33,986 nucleotides of DNA from the UHGV virus genome UHGV-0175871; one strand, 5' to 3'. Within the stretch, counting starts at the first letter, position 1. Every line of letters begins with the position of its first letter. Source of the DNA: a virus. Shown here in pieces: positions 5,236 to 32,454 of this stretch. The notes under the pieces were generated by a model, which worked only from the letters and a program-made list of their open reading frames with translations, was not told the DNA's origin and did no database searches. Position numbers and translations under genes: made by a program.

Positions 5236-5410
5236 GTCAATTGGCTTTGTCCTGCTGGTTGGCACCTGTGGGAATGATGCCTGCGATGCCATTCCGGTAA
5301 CGGAAAAAATCTGGCCCGCGGAGCAGGCATGTATGCAGGTGATGGAGCGCATACAAAAACGTTATCCCAATGAAATCTTTTATTGCGAAGAGGTATTACG
5401 AAATGAGTAA
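5228..5410 (+). CDS. Small putative secreted protein or lipoprotein
   Basis: 60 aa MIKSIGFVLLVGTCGNDACDA...: hydrophobic signal-like N-terminus followed by Cys (non-canonical lipobox VGTC) and four more Cys; ATG overlaps the upstream stop. Confidence 0.4.
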   Translation: MIKSIGFVLLVGTCGNDACDAIPVTEKIWPAEQACMQVMERIQKRYPNEIFYCEEVLRNE

Positions 5411-5738
5411 GCATATTTATGACGACCCTAAATATCGGGCTGAAATGCGGGCGCAACTGGTTGTCAGTGGATATACACCGGAGCAGGCCGATACAACTCT
5501 GACAGAACTGATGGGACAGCTTCCATTTGATGAAGCTGAATATGAATACTGGCTGAAGCAGTACAAGCTGGAAATTATGGAAAACACCACACTTCCATCG
5601 CTGATCAGAATAATAAAAAGCGTTGTCGACAATGCTTGTTATAGCGGTGATTGTCTGGCCGCAGCAATTGCGGCCAGCGCTCTGGTGAATCTGCTGAATG
5701 CTACAGGTGCAGTTGCTCCTGAATCCAGTTGCTCATAA
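5403..5738 (+). CDS. Hypothetical protein
   Basis: 111 aa from ATG 5403 (MSKHIYDDPKYRAEM...); its 3' end overlaps the convergent minus-strand gene by 38 bp. Confidence 0.45.
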   Translation: MSKHIYDDPKYRAEMRAQLVVSGYTPEQADTTLTELMGQLPFDEAEYEYWLKQYKLEIMENTTLPSLIRIIKSVVDNACYSGDCLAAAIAASALVNLLNATGAVAPESSCS

Positions 5739-6096
5739 GGGATTTTCCTGTAGACACAAGAATGTCCATTGAAGCGTCCATGCAGATTTTTTTGAGCCTG
5801 GTCATTATTTTCGGCTGGTTCAGTGCGTTAGCAAAATCCAGACCGCGCTGTGACAAACGGATATACCGGCACCTGAAAGAAACCTTGTCTCGACCGGAAT
5901 GAACGCCTGTTGATTCTGGTGTGGATAACAGGTCTGTTCCGGTAATAAAACCATTATCCAGCATTAACAGAAAGTGAAAGTAAAGCGCGTTCTCGTCGGG
6001 TACAGCATCGGAGAGTTCTGTGTTTTTTATGAATACGTCAGGAGAATCAATTAAAACGTTAAAAATGGTTTTCATTATTTCCAGATCAATTTTCAT
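5701..6096 (-). CDS. Hypothetical protein, the only minus-strand gene; AT-rich moron-like accessory gene
   Basis: 131 aa MKIDLEIMKTIFNVLIDSPDVF...; RBS AAAGGA about 8 nt before the ATG; noticeably more AT-rich than flanking phage genes; convergent with the early operon. Confidence 0.6.
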   Translation of the reverse strand: MKIDLEIMKTIFNVLIDSPDVFIKNTELSDAVPDENALYFHFLLMLDNGFITGTDLLSTPESTGVHSGRDKVSFRCRYIRLSQRGLDFANALNQPKIMTRLKKICMDASMDILVSTGKSLMSNWIQEQLHL

Positions 6097-6159
6097 GAAT
6101 CAAATCCTTTAATACGTTCAGGGCGGTGCAGCAACACCGCCTTCATGGAGATACGCATC

Positions 6160-6708
6160 ATGCGCGCATCATTGATTAAATTAATTCATGTCGCCCGTCG
6201 CGATCTACAACTCGACGATGACACTTACCGCGCCTTTCTGGTGCAGTGCACGGGCAAAACCAGTTGCCGCGAGCTGTCCGTTGCACAACTGGAACGGGTG
6301 CTCGATGCCATGAAAGAGCGCGGTTTTAAGAAGCAGAAAAAACATCCCCGCCGTCGCTTTAAGGGGCATGTCACACCGCGCGAGAAGATTTACAAAATCT
6401 GGCAGCAGATGTTCCTTGATGGTTTCGTTTCCGATATCAGCGACGCTGCGCTGGACAAATACGTTGAGCGCCTGACAGCCAGACGTAATGGCGGTCAGGG
6501 TGTTTCCACGCTGGCATGGTGTCACGGGGAATCGTTGCAGGTTGTGCTTGAAACGCTCAAACAGTGGCATATGCGCTGCATCCGTGAAGCCTTTGCCCGA
6601 CATGGTGTGCCTTTACCTGTGAGCGAAACTGGGCGGGAGCTGCGCGGCTATGATGCACTGACCAGTGCGTATGCCCGTGCACGAAACAGCGGGAGAATTG
6701 CTGTATGA
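6160..6708 (+). CDS. gemA: GemA, gene expression modulator
   Basis: MRASLIKLIHVARRDLQLDDDTYRA... matches my recollection of Mu GemA; GGAGA RBS 7 nt before ATG 6160; an in-frame upstream ATG at 6145 is an alternative start. Confidence 0.8.
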   Translation: MRASLIKLIHVARRDLQLDDDTYRAFLVQCTGKTSCRELSVAQLERVLDAMKERGFKKQKKHPRRRFKGHVTPREKIYKIWQQMFLDGFVSDISDAALDKYVERLTARRNGGQGVSTLAWCHGESLQVVLETLKQWHMRCIREAFARHGVPLPVSETGRELRGYDALTSAYARARNSGRIAV

Positions 6709-7154
6709 AACAGATGAAAGAGCAGGATTTATTCGAAGACCTCCGGGACGACAGCGTTCTGGAATATCTTCATGATTACCAGGAAAACACCGCTTATCCG
6801 GCGTTACTTTCTGAACTGAACGCACTGCTGCGTAAAGAGCTGGCCCGGATTGGCGCAGACCCTGCCCATTCCCTTGAGCTGGTTGTGGCGATTTGTCGCC
6901 ATATCGGCGGGATGCAGGTTTATGTTCCGAGGGGGAATATTCTGGAGAATCTTGTCCGGGATATGCGTATCTGGCGTGATTTTAACGGCCATAATATTCC
7001 TGAACTGGTTCAGCGTTACGGGGTGACGTATAAAACCGTCTACAAGGCCATCAAACGGATGCGACGTCTGGAGCGCAATAAATACCAGCCGGATTTGTTT
7101 TACCCCTCCCCGAACCTGCCTCACCCCGTTCGTCGTCCGCCACGACGCCCTTAA
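6705..7154 (+). CDS. mor: Mor, middle-operon transcription activator (Mor/C family)
   Basis: 149 aa; the core LELVVAICRHIGGMQVYVPRG...IWRDFNGHNIPELVQRYGVTYKTVYKAIKRMRR matches Mor; extra proline/arginine-rich C-terminal tail; ATG overlaps the gemA stop (ATGA). Confidence 0.85.
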   Translation: MKQMKEQDLFEDLRDDSVLEYLHDYQENTAYPALLSELNALLRKELARIGADPAHSLELVVAICRHIGGMQVYVPRGNILENLVRDMRIWRDFNGHNIPELVQRYGVTYKTVYKAIKRMRRLERNKYQPDLFYPSPNLPHPVRRPPRRP

Positions 7155-7158
7155 TCAA

Positions 7159-7184
7159 TGAAGCCGGTAAATCCGGCTTTTTTT
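7159..7184 (+). terminator. Rho-independent terminator at the end of the early operon
   Basis: Stem AAGCCGG / loop TAAAT / CCGGCTT followed by seven T, 5 bp after the mor stop. Confidence 0.75.
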
Positions 7185-7199
7185 ATGCCTCCGGCACCA

Positions 7200-7228
7200 T
7201 GAAGCAGACCACGTTTAAATCTGCTTCA
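7200..7228 (+). promoter_or_regulatory. Inverted repeat upstream of the endolysin gene (candidate operator or 5' UTR hairpin)
   Basis: TGAAGCAG-13 nt-CTGCTTCA, ending 12 bp before the ATG at 7240. Confidence 0.35.
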
Positions 7229-7239
7229 CAGGTGCTTTT

Positions 7240-7836
7240 ATGGAAAATCAAAAATTCCCCCCGGCCTTTGAGCATGCGCTGAATTTCATTCTGCGTCCCG
7301 ATATCGAAGGCGTCTATGTCAATGACCCCACTGACCGTGGCGGCGAAACCAAATACGGCATTTCTGACCGCCGCGACGGTGTGATTGACGGCAAAACCGA
7401 TGTCAACGGCGACGGCAAACCGGATACCCGCATTAAGGATTTAACCCGCGAACAGGTCGCGCAGATTTACTGGCGCGATTACTGGCTGCCTGCCGGATGT
7501 GACCAGTGGCCTGATGGCGTGGCGATGTTTGTGTTCGATGCAGCGGTTCAGCATGGCGTTAAAAAAGCCATCAGAATTTTGCAGGAAGCCGCTGATGTGG
7601 ATGCTGACGGCATCATCGGCCCGCGTACCCGTAAGGCCGTGAGTCTGTCCACCCCGGACTGGTTGTTGGCCCGCTGCATTGTCCGTCGTTCCCGCTTTTA
7701 TGCCGACATCATCAAGTCAAAACCCGCCCAGGGTAAATACCTGAACGGCTGGTTTAACCGCATGGAAAAACTGACCGACGCCTGTCTGGAAATCATCGAT
7801 ACCCCTCTGGGCATCATGTCCGCCACGCGGGGGTGA
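7240..7836 (+). CDS. Endolysin, GH108 lysozyme domain plus peptidoglycan-binding domain
   Basis: N-terminal FPPAFEHALNFILRPDIEGVYVNDPTDRGGETKYGIS is the GH108 signature; C-terminal ADGIIGPRTRKAV...YLNGWFNRM resembles PG_binding_3. Confidence 0.85.
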   Translation: MENQKFPPAFEHALNFILRPDIEGVYVNDPTDRGGETKYGISDRRDGVIDGKTDVNGDGKPDTRIKDLTREQVAQIYWRDYWLPAGCDQWPDGVAMFVFDAAVQHGVKKAIRILQEAADVDADGIIGPRTRKAVSLSTPDWLLARCIVRRSRFYADIIKSKPAQGKYLNGWFNRMEKLTDACLEIIDTPLGIMSATRG

Positions 7837-8065: not shown

Positions 8066-8459
8066 TCTTTTTGTTCGCGTTATTTACTCCCGCTTTATGT
8101 TGTGCCAGTGGTCGTTTCTGGGGCTGTCGGCAGTGCTTTTTCTGGCGAGCTGTTTTGCCGGATGGCGGGCGTTTGCGGTCATGGTGCTGGCATACGGCGC
8201 GACACTCTGCCTGATTCACAGTTTCCAGCTGGGTAACGTGCCTTATCGCCTGCAACCCAAAAGGCGCTTCCGGGCGGCCTCCCTTCGAATTGTCGTGTGG
8301 TCATGGGTGGTCTGGGCCGTTGGTTTTTTCATGCTGACATTCGGCATTCTTTATCTGAAGGAGCCTTATCAGCTGGCGTTCTGGCTGGGCGGTATCTTTT
8401 GCGCGGCACTTTATAAACATCAGCGCCGTTTTCATAAGGGGGATTCATGGATCCGTTAA
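8049..8459 (+). CDS. Multi-pass membrane protein (possible holin, antiholin or exclusion protein)
   Basis: About 136 aa from ATG 8049; three or four hydrophobic helices (LGLSAVLFLASCFAGW, VMVLAYGATLCLI, VVWSWVVWAVGFFMLTFGILYL, LAFWLGGIFCAALY). Confidence 0.5.
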   Translation: MHRMNSLFVRVIYSRFMLCQWSFLGLSAVLFLASCFAGWRAFAVMVLAYGATLCLIHSFQLGNVPYRLQPKRRFRAASLRIVVWSWVVWAVGFFMLTFGILYLKEPYQLAFWLGGIFCAALYKHQRRFHKGDSWIR

Positions 8460-28862: not shown

Positions 28863-29393
28863 ATGGAACTCAGAAACGTCACGCGTTATTACCCGGAAGA
28901 GATGCCTTATGGTGAAAACATTCAGTATTTCCGCAGTGAAGACGGACAGGATTTTTATGAATCACTGGATAAATTCACGAAGAAATACAAATTGTGTATT
29001 CACCCGGAAACCGGCGTGATTTATTCAATGGCGGAAGACGTGTCCCGTCTTTATCCGGCTGGCTTCACCATTGTGGAAGTGGATGAACTGCCGGAAGGTT
29101 TTGGCATTGAAGCCTGCTGGTATTACAAAGACGGCGAAGTGCTGCCGGTTCCTGTTGATTATTCGCAACTGGCAGAAAAACAACGCCAGAGCCTGCTGAA
29201 TGAAGCGAAGGACATCACCTCCGACTGGAAAACCGAGCTGGAGCTGGGCACCATCAGCGACGATGATAAAGCGCGTCTTACGCAGTGGATGGCATATATC
29301 AAAGCGGTAAAGGCTCTGGATTTAAGCACCGTTACTGACGAAGCCTCCTTTTACTCCATCAACTGGCCGGAGCGTCCCGATGCCGCAGCTTAA
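28863..29393 (+). CDS. Tail fibre assembly chaperone (Mu U / lambda Tfa family)
   Basis: 176 aa from ATG 28863 with AAGGAG RBS; C-terminal ...DDDKARLTQWMAYIKAVKALDLS typical of Tfa proteins. Confidence 0.7.
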   Translation: MELRNVTRYYPEEMPYGENIQYFRSEDGQDFYESLDKFTKKYKLCIHPETGVIYSMAEDVSRLYPAGFTIVEVDELPEGFGIEACWYYKDGEVLPVPVDYSQLAEKQRQSLLNEAKDITSDWKTELELGTISDDDKARLTQWMAYIKAVKALDLSTVTDEASFYSINWPERPDAAA

Positions 29394-32300
29394 AGGTGTG
29401 ATTAAAACGCCCACGGGAGAACCGCTGGGTGGCGCAACCATTACACTGACCTCCCTGCACAACCGTGCAGGGATTCTGAAAAGTGTTTTCAGCCATGTCA
29501 CCACACAGAACGGGGAATATGACTTCACCGTTCTGCCGGGTGTGTACAGCGTTCGCCTGACACAAAGCACACAGCGCCTTTCAGAAATCGGTGTCATCCG
29601 CGTTTATGAAGATTCAGCGGACGGTTCGCTGAATGATTTTCTGGGCGCAACCGATATTGACCTGCGCCCGGAAGCCCTGAAGAAATTCGAAGAGCTGGCG
29701 CAACAGGCGCAGCAAAGCGCAGAAAAAGCAGGAGAGCACGCCACCGCTGCTGAACAGGCCCGCCAGGATACAGAAGCGCTCGCCGGGGAAATACAGCAGG
29801 ATGCAGAAGAAATCGCGGGTAATGTGCAGAAAGCTGAAGAGCTGGCCTCTGAGACCAACCAGAATGCCGCCCGGGCAGAACAGGCGGTCAAAGATGCCGA
29901 TAAGATAGTCCAGAAAGCGGTCGATAAACTTGCTGATGCCGCAACGCTGACCGGTGAGGCAAAAGCCAGCGCCGAAGCGGCAGCAAAAAGCGAGCAGAGC
30001 GCGAAACAGCACAGGGACGAGGCGCAACGGATAGTTGATGACCTGAAGGGAACCAACGCCAGCACGACGCAAAAAGGCCTGGTGCAACTCTGTAGTGATA
30101 CAGACAACGACAGCGAAGAACTGGCCGCCACACCAAAAGCCGTCAAAACCGTCATGGACGAGACGAAAACAAAAGCGCCACTGGACAGCCCGGCATTCAT
30201 CGGCACGCCCACCACACCAACCCCGCCGGACGATGCGACCGGGCTGGAGATGGCGAACGCGGCATTTGTTCGCAAACTGCTTGCTGCGCTGGTTGACTCG
30301 TCACCGGAAGCCCTGGACACACTGAACGAGCTGGCAGCGGCGCTGGGCAATGACCCGGAGTTTGCGACAACAATCTTGAACGCGCTGGCGGGTAAACAAC
30401 CACTCAGTGACGTGTTAACCGCAATCAGTAATCTGGAAGAACGGGCAGATAATCTTCTGTGCTTTAATCATGACGGAAATGCTTCATTGTCTCCGCTGTC
30501 AGAAAAAGCCCGGTCACTGCTGGCACAGGCCACAGCGGAAGCCATGCGCAATGAGCTTGAGCTGAAAAGCGCAGCGGTAAGGGATATTCAGATAGACCTT
30601 TACGACAGCATGGAAGGCCGTGTTGCGCTTCCCGGTGCGTATGGTTACGGAATGACGGACGCCGGAGCACGTTCAATTATTGCCAGCGATATGGCGACTG
30701 TAGCCAGAACCGCTCACAACCTGCACCCGGGACGGTATTACACCTTTTCCACACAAACGGAAAAAACAACCGGAATAACAGAAATTATCTGGCTGGATAA
30801 TGGCCGGGGCGACAAAACCAGTCAGACAGCAACAAAGCTGGTTCTGTTCTTTGGAAAAGACGGACGGATTCTTATGACCGTTCGTGGCGATAATATCTCC
30901 GCCCCGGTCACCTGGACGAATCTGACGCCACAACTGGGCAATGCAGCACAAAAGGATGCGCAGGAGAGTATTTACGACCGCACCGAAGGCCGTCTGGCGG
31001 TTCCTGGCATGTTCGGATTCGGGAAAATATTTTCCAGCGGCGACAGGACCGAGTTTAAAACAGAGGCCGATTTTCTCCGCTGGGTAAAAACGGCAAAACC
31101 CGGACGCTATGCCGTTTATGCAGATACAAATGCGGTAATACAGGGCGTGCTGTTCAAGGGTACCGTTGAAATTATCTGGCCGGAACCTCAAACCAACCCC
31201 AATCCGGCATGTGTGGCTAAAATCATTATTTTTTACGGTATTAACGGCCACATTTATTACAATCGCTACTGGACTACCGGAGATGGTTATCTGGTTGGCT
31301 GGGAAAACCTGAAAGTCAACGAGGTTTCACTCCGGGCACTGATTGAAACCCGTGCGCCACTGAACAGTCCGACACTGACCGGAACGCCGTCCACGCCAAC
31401 ACCACCAGATGATGCAGCAGGTAATGAAATAGCCAATGCGGCGTTTGTCCGCAAACTGCTTGCTGCACTGGTTGACTCGTCACCGGAAGCCCTGGACACG
31501 CTGAACGAGCTGGCAGCGGCGCTGGGTAATGACCCGAACTTTGCGACGACAATCATGAACGCGCTGGCCGGTAAACAACCGCTGAACGATGTGCTGACGG
31601 CTATCAGTGAACTGACGCAACGGGCAGATAATCTTCTGTGCTTTAATCAGGACGGGAATGCTTCACTGTCTCCACTGTCAGAAAAAGCCCGGCTGCTGCT
31701 TGCTCAGACTACAGCGGAAGACATGCTGTCTGTTCTTGAGTTGCAAAAGAATACGTACAGCGCCCAGAGTGATATTTATGACCGGGCGGAAGATAAACTG
31801 GCTCTTCCTGGTGCATTCGGATTTGGTTATCCGTTTGGAAAAGAAGACCAGCTCACCTTTAAAAACACATCGGAGCTGACCACGTGGGTAACAAACGCTT
31901 ATCCGGGACGTTATGCGGTAACCGTCCCTAATCAGGGAACAATCATACCTGGTGTTTATTTTACGGGTATTCTTGATGTTATCTGGCAGATGAACCAGTA
32001 CGAAACAAAGCCCCCGTCAGATGCTGCAAAATGCATAATGTTTTATGCAGGAAACGGTGATATCTGGTTTAACCGATATATTTACGGGCGTCTTGTTGGC
32101 TGGGAGCGAATAAAGATATCCACAGCCGATATTTATAATGTTATGGGGGGGACCATCAGCAATGAGTGGGGAGACCCTGATGTTGGTGGACTGATTATTG
32201 CTGCATACCAGGGAACGACTGACGGAGATACAAAAATCAAGCTTGTGAGAGGGCAATATTACGCAGGCTCACGGCTGGGGCCGGTGGGAATTTCAGCGCC

Positions 32301-32454
32301 CTACAATCCAGCCGGAACGTATTCATCAAGCCCGCAATTCTACGTTATGGGAAATGCAGGTCATTCATTACCGGGTACATATCGCGCCCTGTCCGGGGTA
32401 ACAAACACCTATGGTTCCGACGCGATGATTGGGCTTTTTATTCGCACAGCGTGA
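29380..32454 (+). CDS. Side tail fibre protein, lambda Stf-like, with internal tandem duplication
   Basis: 1024 aa; N-terminal ...IGVIRVYEDSADGSLNDFL; Ala/Glu/Gln-rich coiled shaft; conserved TQKGLVQLCS...LAATPKAVKTVMDETKTKAPLDSPA...LDTLNELAAALGNDPEFATT..NALAGKQP block occurring twice. Confidence 0.85.
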   Translation: MPQLKGVIKTPTGEPLGGATITLTSLHNRAGILKSVFSHVTTQNGEYDFTVLPGVYSVRLTQSTQRLSEIGVIRVYEDSADGSLNDFLGATDIDLRPEALKKFEELAQQAQQSAEKAGEHATAAEQARQDTEALAGEIQQDAEEIAGNVQKAEELASETNQNAARAEQAVKDADKIVQKAVDKLADAATLTGEAKASAEAAAKSEQSAKQHRDEAQRIVDDLKGTNASTTQKGLVQLCSDTDNDSEELAATPKAVKTVMDETKTKAPLDSPAFIGTPTTPTPPDDATGLEMANAAFVRKLLAALVDSSPEALDTLNELAAALGNDPEFATTILNALAGKQPLSDVLTAISNLEERADNLLCFNHDGNASLSPLSEKARSLLAQATAEAMRNELELKSAAVRDIQIDLYDSMEGRVALPGAYGYGMTDAGARSIIASDMATVARTAHNLHPGRYYTFSTQTEKTTGITEIIWLDNGRGDKTSQTATKLVLFFGKDGRILMTVRGDNISAPVTWTNLTPQLGNAAQKDAQESIYDRTEGRLAVPGMFGFGKIFSSGDRTEFKTEADFLRWVKTAKPGRYAVYADTNAVIQGVLFKGTVEIIWPEPQTNPNPACVAKIIIFYGINGHIYYNRYWTTGDGYLVGWENLKVNEVSLRALIETRAPLNSPTLTGTPSTPTPPDDAAGNEIANAAFVRKLLAALVDSSPEALDTLNELAAALGNDPNFATTIMNALAGKQPLNDVLTAISELTQRADNLLCFNQDGNASLSPLSEKARLLLAQTTAEDMLSVLELQKNTYSAQSDIYDRAEDKLALPGAFGFGYPFGKEDQLTFKNTSELTTWVTNAYPGRYAVTVPNQGTIIPGVYFTGILDVIWQMNQYETKPPSDAAKCIMFYAGNGDIWFNRYIYGRLVGWERIKISTADIYNVMGGTISNEWGDPDVGGLIIAAYQGTTDGDTKIKLVRGQYYAGSRLGPVGISAPYNPAGTYSSSPQFYVMGNAGHSLPGTYRALSGVTNTYGSDAMIGLFIRTA
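30175..30546 (+). repeat. Copy 1 of the ~372-bp direct repeat inside the tail fibre gene
   Basis: Aligns in frame with 31354..31725, about 80-90% identity by eye, with perfect blocks of 26-32 bp. Confidence 0.85.
31354..31725 (+). repeat. Copy 2 of the ~372-bp direct repeat inside the tail fibre gene
   Basis: See copy 1; offset 1179 bp (393 codons). Confidence 0.85.

Follow-up and report, generated by a model that had tools for sequence, protein, structure and literature searches.

A minus-strand open reading frame in the early region of a Mu-like prophage is, judging by its conservation and coding constraint, a genuine gene, and its product is a divergent member of the DUF2513/phrog_585 family. 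Comparison of related loci indicates that Mu-like phages have kept this arrangement of a reverse gene, with gp15 of phage Mu as its prototype. What seemed an oddity thus represents one of the states in which a conserved accessory slot, present even in phage Mu, can occur, and a frame without a family now falls in one that is named, yet uncharacterised. As the evidence stands, the gene is an ordinary, functionally uncharacterised accessory gene.

The reverse gene and its family

The window (the whole 33,986-nt stretch of DNA analysed, from UHGV virus genome UHGV-0175871) is a Mu-like (Muvirus-type) transposable prophage which begins inside the transposase gene. A prophage of E. coli STEC383 is near-identical to it, at 98-99% across the early region, and the PGAP annotation of that prophage gives a single orientation to all genes between the transposase and mom inclusive, with the exceptions of the minus-strand frame and the repressor gene, the latter lying to the left of the window and outside it. 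All other long minus-strand frames in the window are embedded in longer plus-strand ones. Both observations support the claim of the first-pass annotation that this is the sole credible minus-strand gene of the window. The frame had also been credited with its own ribosome-binding site, a higher AT content than its neighbours, a 38-bp convergent overlap with the plus-strand gene to its left and a start some 50-65 bp from gemA, and these descriptions hold (Table 1). It opens with ATG and encodes 131 aa; the AAAGGA preceding it has an equivalent AAGGA in the alleles at loci L026 and L044. Its GC content, 42.4% as against 54.7% for the window, is among the lowest 0.4% of 396-nt windows. PGAP calls the same overlapping gene pair in the STEC383 prophage, and the distance from the start codon to gemA is 63 nt if measured to the ATG at 6160, which aligns with other gemA starts, or 48 nt to an in-frame upstream ATG at 6145.

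Table 1. Positions of the reverse gene, its neighbours and associated signals in the window.
Feature	Position	Strand	Basis or remark
Early gene upstream, flanking the slot on its left; 111 aa, phrog_27371	5403..5738	+	
Divergent DUF2513/phrog_585 CDS, 131 aa, predicted winged helix (WP_095628579.1-like)	5701..6096	-	ORF, profile, alleles, AlphaFold2
Convergent 3'-end overlap of reverse gene and upstream early gene, 38 bp, no terminator between	5701..5738	both	
Cassette: segment that differs in E. coli 06-00048, a plus-only relative	5727..6162		BLASTN breakpoints; flanks 94-95% identical
Shine-Dalgarno sequence AAAGGA	6105..6110	-	Visible in sequence; AGGA core to ATG, 8 nt
Perfect GC-rich inverted repeat GGCGGTG-N6-CACCGCC between divergent starts, before gemA RBS	6122..6141		
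gemA; right neighbour of the slot	6160..6708	+	Pfam GemA E=9e-33; start by alignment
mor-family activator, last gene of early operon	6705..7154	+	Pfam Mor E=3.6e-30
Strong intrinsic terminator after mor, AGCCGG-TAAAT-CCGGCT + T7, end of early operon	7162..7184	+	Sequence

Further along the window, only one Mor/C-family activator gene occurs between gemA and the GH108 endolysin gene (6705..7836), where Mu carries, before lys, mor, gp18-20 and a separate C gene; the single gene suggests a regulatory cascade shortened relative to that of Mu. The tail-fibre gene (29380..32454) encodes 1024 aa and its STEC383 counterpart (L099 4093..6012) a 639-aa prophage tail-fibre protein, while inverted G-segment-type frames are not evident in the window.

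The identical protein was found on 19 assembled contigs, all of them mosaic Mu-like prophages in which it lies between the same 111-aa gene and gemA. Klebsiella phage Kp4866-3 carries a 45% identical homolog, placed and oriented alike, whose convergent overlap is 29 bp, and a gemA-anchored survey of IMG/VR added 11 Mu-like loci with a homolog of 134 or 138 aa, approximately 33% identical to the window protein and again in the same position and orientation. Five diverged allele types (33-45% identity) thus occupy one slot with a full-length frame. Comparisons among alleles gave dN/dS values of 0.09-0.3 with synonymous sites saturated, which shows that the minus-strand frame is under purifying selection.

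The first-pass annotation could not name a family for the product, and here it is superseded. PHROG 585, an uncharacterised family, was matched at E=1.5e-11, with residues 1-130 aligned to positions 1-126 of the 128 in the profile; sister alleles matched the same profile at E=2e-23 and 3e-31. An exhaustive phmmer search gathered 56 cluster representatives, all of 125-146 aa and aligned end to end, and a PF10711 (DUF2513) match is present in 46 of the 51 aligned homologs (best E=1.7e-13). A profile built for the family recovers 65 proteins, every one at full length, with those annotated as DUF2513 reaching E-values down to 3e-37; most of the 65 have a precomputed PF10711 domain and the rest have none on record. 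Compared directly with the PF10711 model, the window protein gave no match at E<=1, and the alleles of L026 and L044 scored only 16.7-18.9 bits, below the gathering score of 29.6 bits. Membership in a divergent branch of DUF2513/phrog_585 is accordingly a matter of transitive, profile-level homology. The conserved motif positions H41, R80, L81 and G85 are present, R80 and G85 being invariant across the family alignment (A2).

Other resources yielded little. The window protein had no direct match in Pfam, NCBIfam or PDB sequences, nor among the PADLOC-DB v2 component models, and searching the PDB sequences with the family profile returned chance-level matches only. When 61 family members were compared with PADLOC-DB v2, a single marginal match, to LmuC (E=0.0095), was obtained, and the database contains no model of the family. 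Literature searches on DUF2513, PF10711 and Mu gp15 found nothing relevant, and none turned up a study of the gp15 slot.

Occupants of the slot before gemA

The reverse gene had been presented as an oddity of one phage, which it is not, as Mu itself has gp15 in the same place and orientation. Mu gp15 (Mup15, NP_050619.1) is an 88-aa minus-strand product whose gene has a 62-bp convergent overlap with gp14 and lies 70 bp upstream of gemA; its relatives include forms of 80, 107 and 119 aa, linked via phrog_8747, 32893 and 38610. We surveyed the slot in 49 enterobacterial-type Mu-like loci. A DUF2513-like reverse gene was found in 11 and a gp15-like one in about 19, so that about 30 of the 49 carry one or the other. 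The slot lacks a reverse gene in about 14, in most of which the upstream plus-strand gene overlaps the gemA start; one locus holds a degenerate gene, and four were distant. Every DUF2513 allele overlaps the upstream gene convergently by 29-39 bp, and the gp15 types do so by 62 bp. A GemA scan of genome contigs yielded nine loci only, none of them informative.

A remote homology between the two kinds of occupant was considered, prompted by a common 'LL.LV..G.I' motif, and ruled out by family-family hhalign comparison (probability approximately 3%; 3.3%); the window protein and the gp15 homolog of L004 gave a BLASTP E-value of 23. The 111-aa gene to the left was likewise tried as a homolog of Mu gp14 and rejected.

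The cassette is present or absent between flanks that are otherwise 94-98% identical. The contrast between L027 and L026/L068 is a clean indel of approximately 395 nt which holds only the gene and its ribosome-binding site, while L024, whose GemA is 99% identical and whose leader is unchanged, has a gp15-like gene in the slot. GemA is 80-98% identical across loci whose adjacent DUF2513 alleles are approximately 33-34% identical. Such patterns indicate that the slot occupants are old, diverged alleles reshuffled by recombination, as opposed to a recently evolved frame. A further observation concerns the left-hand edge, where the DNA encoding a C-terminal motif of the upstream early gene, AAAIAASALVNL (window 5638..5693; L005 3910..3965), is 78% conserved between the window and Kp4866-3, and the sequence around the motif is otherwise unalignable between the two phages. 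The cassette may have its left recombination boundary in the DNA encoding AAAIAASALVNL.

Absence of the frame from close relatives with conserved flanks had been named in advance as an outcome that would speak against it. It is, in the literal sense, absent from some of them, but wherever it is present it is intact and under purifying selection. Absence in some relatives fits an accessory gene, because accessory genes look so.

DUF2513 genes occur in quite different surroundings elsewhere. In HK97- and lambda-like prophages of E. coli, Klebsiella and Edwardsiella, the gene lies between the lysis cassette and HNH/terminase, on the strand of its neighbours, and a Yersinia phage homolog is also co-oriented with the genes around it. 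Since the lambdoid genes are co-oriented with late genes, expression in the lysogen would not be a property of the family as a whole. In L087-L093, L096-L098 and L101, DUF2513 is the last gene before HNH-TerS-TerL or a lambda-type terminase, and this position is kept even where the upstream lysis cassette has been swapped. The lysis-terminase junction is itself an accessory position, with an Acb2/Tad1-like gene there in L098. In Thiothrix nivea (L094 5001..5408), DUF2513 directly follows a 1065-aa Type ISP/MmeI-like restriction-modification enzyme, and on a phage contig (L102 5001..5435) it adjoins a GmrSD_C protein near an AcrVA2-like gene. These restriction-modification, GmrSD_C and AcrVA2-like neighbours hint at a link to defence and anti-defence neighbourhoods. 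Taken over all contexts, a dispensable accessory function, possibly conflict-related, fits the family, which is not to say that the contexts prove one.

Predicted fold and transcription signals

A confident AlphaFold2 model computed from a 61-sequence alignment (pLDDT 84.5, pTM 0.78) shows a small single-domain protein with a predicted winged-helix fold, in which three helices are followed by a beta-wing, the only low-confidence part, and three C-terminal helices. The nearest folds by structure comparison were MarR, PadR, HxlR and TubR, with a Foldseek TM of only 0.4-0.47 to the MarR/PadR type, and Foldseek searches of the PDB and BFVD returned weak, generic winged-helix matches without a functional lead. 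The family is acidic, with a median pI of 5.4 and a value of 5.9 for the window protein. The candidate recognition helix, H3, carries a net charge of -2 (family mean -1.8) and includes D47, a position that is acidic in 98% of the family; R80, at the end of the wing, is the only nearly invariant basic residue. We take the winged helix as established by this model, but a role as an operator-binding repressor is doubtful, because the predicted electrostatics are unlike those of a classical regulator.

The implication of the first-pass annotation that a promoter fires leftward from the gemA side was not matched by a recognisable one. A scan for sigma-70 consensus sites upstream of the reverse gene found none, the sole site being inside the frame, and a PWM promoter scan of six alleles gave nothing above the shuffled-control median and no convincingly conserved site, which leaves room for non-consensus signals. 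A weak, positionally equivalent candidate has a -35 element, TTAAyT, in the LIKLIH codons of gemA and a -10 element over the gemA start. Since the protein is under selection and nothing else is read leftward for 28 kb to its right, a promoter of its own must presumably exist. Any such promoter would have to lie inside gemA in the L026 and L044 alleles, as only 32 nt separate the divergent start codons there. The first 70 nt or so of gemA (6160..6230) are near-invariant, synonymous positions included, even in Kp4866-3, which is approximately 70% identical around them; this stretch may contain a cis-acting signal, for example the leftward promoter that the scans did not reveal.

No terminator was found 3' of the reverse gene, whose 3' end overlaps the neighbouring gene. 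A terminator-like hairpin on the minus strand, GCCTGC-TCC-GCGGGC followed by CAGATTTTTT, occurs at 5314..5328, approximately 370 nt past the stop codon and inside a 60-aa plus-strand gene. About one such site would be expected by chance in the region scanned, and the hairpin could be the end of a leftward transcript.

The inverted repeat between the divergent starts has an invariant stem and a variable loop, and no other copy was found in the window. It is kept in Mu (NC_000929, approximately 8195..8214), Tongde, RIVM and Kp4866 (including L001, L004 and L005) and in 21 IMG/VR loci (among L024-L072), whichever cassette they carry; in L057 and L066 it also follows plus-strand frames. Neither the DUF2513 alleles of the L026/L044 type nor the plus-only variants abutting gemA have it. 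Being common to unrelated cassettes and missing from other DUF2513 alleles, the palindrome was ruled out as an allele-specific operator. Candidate roles are stabilisation of a leftward mRNA at its 5' end, attenuation or processing ahead of gemA, and a recombination boundary.

Proposed role, rival readings and known systems

The window carries an accessory gene of the gp15 slot, and we consider it probable, though well short of assured, that a small binding protein is made from it in the lysogen, driven by a non-consensus promoter at the gemA start. The slot, bounded by the last semi-essential early gene on one side and gemA on the other, holds a DUF2513-like gene, a gp15-like gene or nothing, with alleles exchanged by recombination at the two ends of the gene; in Mu and most of its enterobacterial relatives it contains one small gene directed against the early operon. 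Transcription would start inside, or overlapping, the first gemA codons, independently of the repressor-controlled early promoter. As the 3' ends overlap with no intervening terminator, it would probably continue into the early genes in antisense direction. Our best guess for the product is that it serves, dispensably, in conflict between phages or between phage and host, or in regulation. The predicted acidic winged-helix surface with its single invariant wing arginine points to a protein, or an unusual nucleic acid, as the partner in preference to a classical operator.

The slot may instead be a dedicated reverse conflict locus from which small exclusion or anti-defence factors of a hitherto unrecognised class are made in the lysogen, or may provide a second, immunity-like control of gemA-mor; this larger claim is a speculative one which we hold to be unlikely. 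If the conflict-locus version were true, DUF2513 would be a new phage-conflict family built on an acidic, non-DNA-binding winged helix. More generally, both the widespread DUF2513 family and Mu gp15 would gain a function if the slot occupants were exclusion, anti-defence or timing factors expressed by the prophage.

Several other explanations need to be weighed. That the frame arose by chance, as a shadow ORF of AT-rich spacer DNA, could be argued from the lack of a Pfam match for the window protein itself and from the absence of a recognisable promoter. It is nonetheless next to inconceivable, and we regard it as refuted by full-length conservation of five syntenic allele types with dN/dS of 0.09-0.3 at saturated synonymous sites, profile matches to a family of at least 56 clusters, a confident predicted fold and a good ribosome-binding site. 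A more substantial case can be made for a divergent regulator, in which a MarR/PadR-like repressor would bind the palindrome, autoregulate and gate the early-to-middle switch at gemA-mor. A divergent gene pair with an inverted repeat between its members is the classical layout for such regulators, and here gemA-mor and the reverse gene point away from each other across a perfect 7-bp inverted repeat, and the closest folds are MarR, PadR, HxlR and TubR. However, the palindrome also accompanies gp15-like cassettes and the plus-strand frames of L057 and L066, and is missing from the L026/L044-type DUF2513 alleles, with their 32 nt between starts. Together with the lack of a Pfam MarR/PadR match, a net acidic recognition helix in a family with one conserved basic residue, and plus-only relatives that manage without such a regulator, this makes the proposal an unlikely one.

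It is also conceivable that the transcript matters more than the protein, with antisense RNA or polymerase collision damping leaky early expression or timing Mor, and the protein being secondary. Orientation and convergent overlap (29-62 bp, no terminator) are kept whichever family fills the slot, and prophage antisense RNA with exclusion activity has been documented in BTP1 (PMC7067206), which offers a precedent. Yet coding constraint acts on both protein families (dN/dS 0.09-0.3), a reverse gene is lacking altogether in about 14 of the 49 relatives and the promoter was not identified. We hold this explanation to be unlikely, slightly more so than that of a divergent regulator. Slightly less probable again is a helper in the lytic cycle, for instance in DNA handling or packaging. 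In at least four types of mosaic prophage, canonical DUF2513 genes do lie directly upstream of HNH or terminase genes and share their strand, but in Mu-like phages the gene is far from the packaging genes, on the opposite strand and dispensable (absent in relatives), and the lysis-terminase junction, given the Acb2/Tad1-like gene in L098, is an accessory position in its own right.

The preferred reading, of a lysogen-expressed accessory gene in the gp15 slot, may finally be set beside known systems. With the MarR/PadR regulators the window protein shares a winged helix-turn-helix fold, predicted here; it differs from them in that neither it nor its homologs match Pfam MarR/PadR, in the acidity of its recognition helix and N-terminal half, and in that no allele-specific operator was found near the DUF2513 gene. 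Resemblance to DUF2513 is closer, and comprises a single domain of approximately 130 aa, a family found mostly in phages and prophages, and the motifs MKxDxxxxK (N-terminal), FH..LL...G[LF]I and R-L-[TS]-x-x-G-x-[DE]-F. The window protein is, however, too divergent for a direct Pfam match, and its gene is antisense in an early operon, whereas lambdoid members are co-oriented with late genes beside HNH-terminase.

Morons of temperate phages, such as lambda bor and HK97 gp15, were reportedly described by Hendrix and colleagues, and a classical moron has its own promoter and its own terminator. The reverse gene is like a moron in being added between two genes which relatives have side by side, in its deviant GC content and in lying antisense to lytic genes, and the last of these is considered characteristic of moron loci (PMC7067206). 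It is unlike one in that a promoter and terminator were not detectable, and in that neither would fit into the cassette of the sister alleles. The moron label proposed in the first-pass annotation may thus be kept in part: presence or absence among relatives, deviant GC, antisense placement and a slot with alternative genes support it, and the missing promoter and terminator do not. As a description drawn from these comparisons, a moron-type accessory cassette is largely right.

The nearest counterpart by location is Mu gp15. The two products differ in length (88 as against 131 aa) and have no sequence relationship, genomic position being what their genes have in common. Within that limit the correspondence is detailed: both genes are small, lie on the minus strand between the last early gene of the SEE region and gemA, overlap the upstream gene convergently at their 3' ends and have the same GC hairpin between them and gemA.
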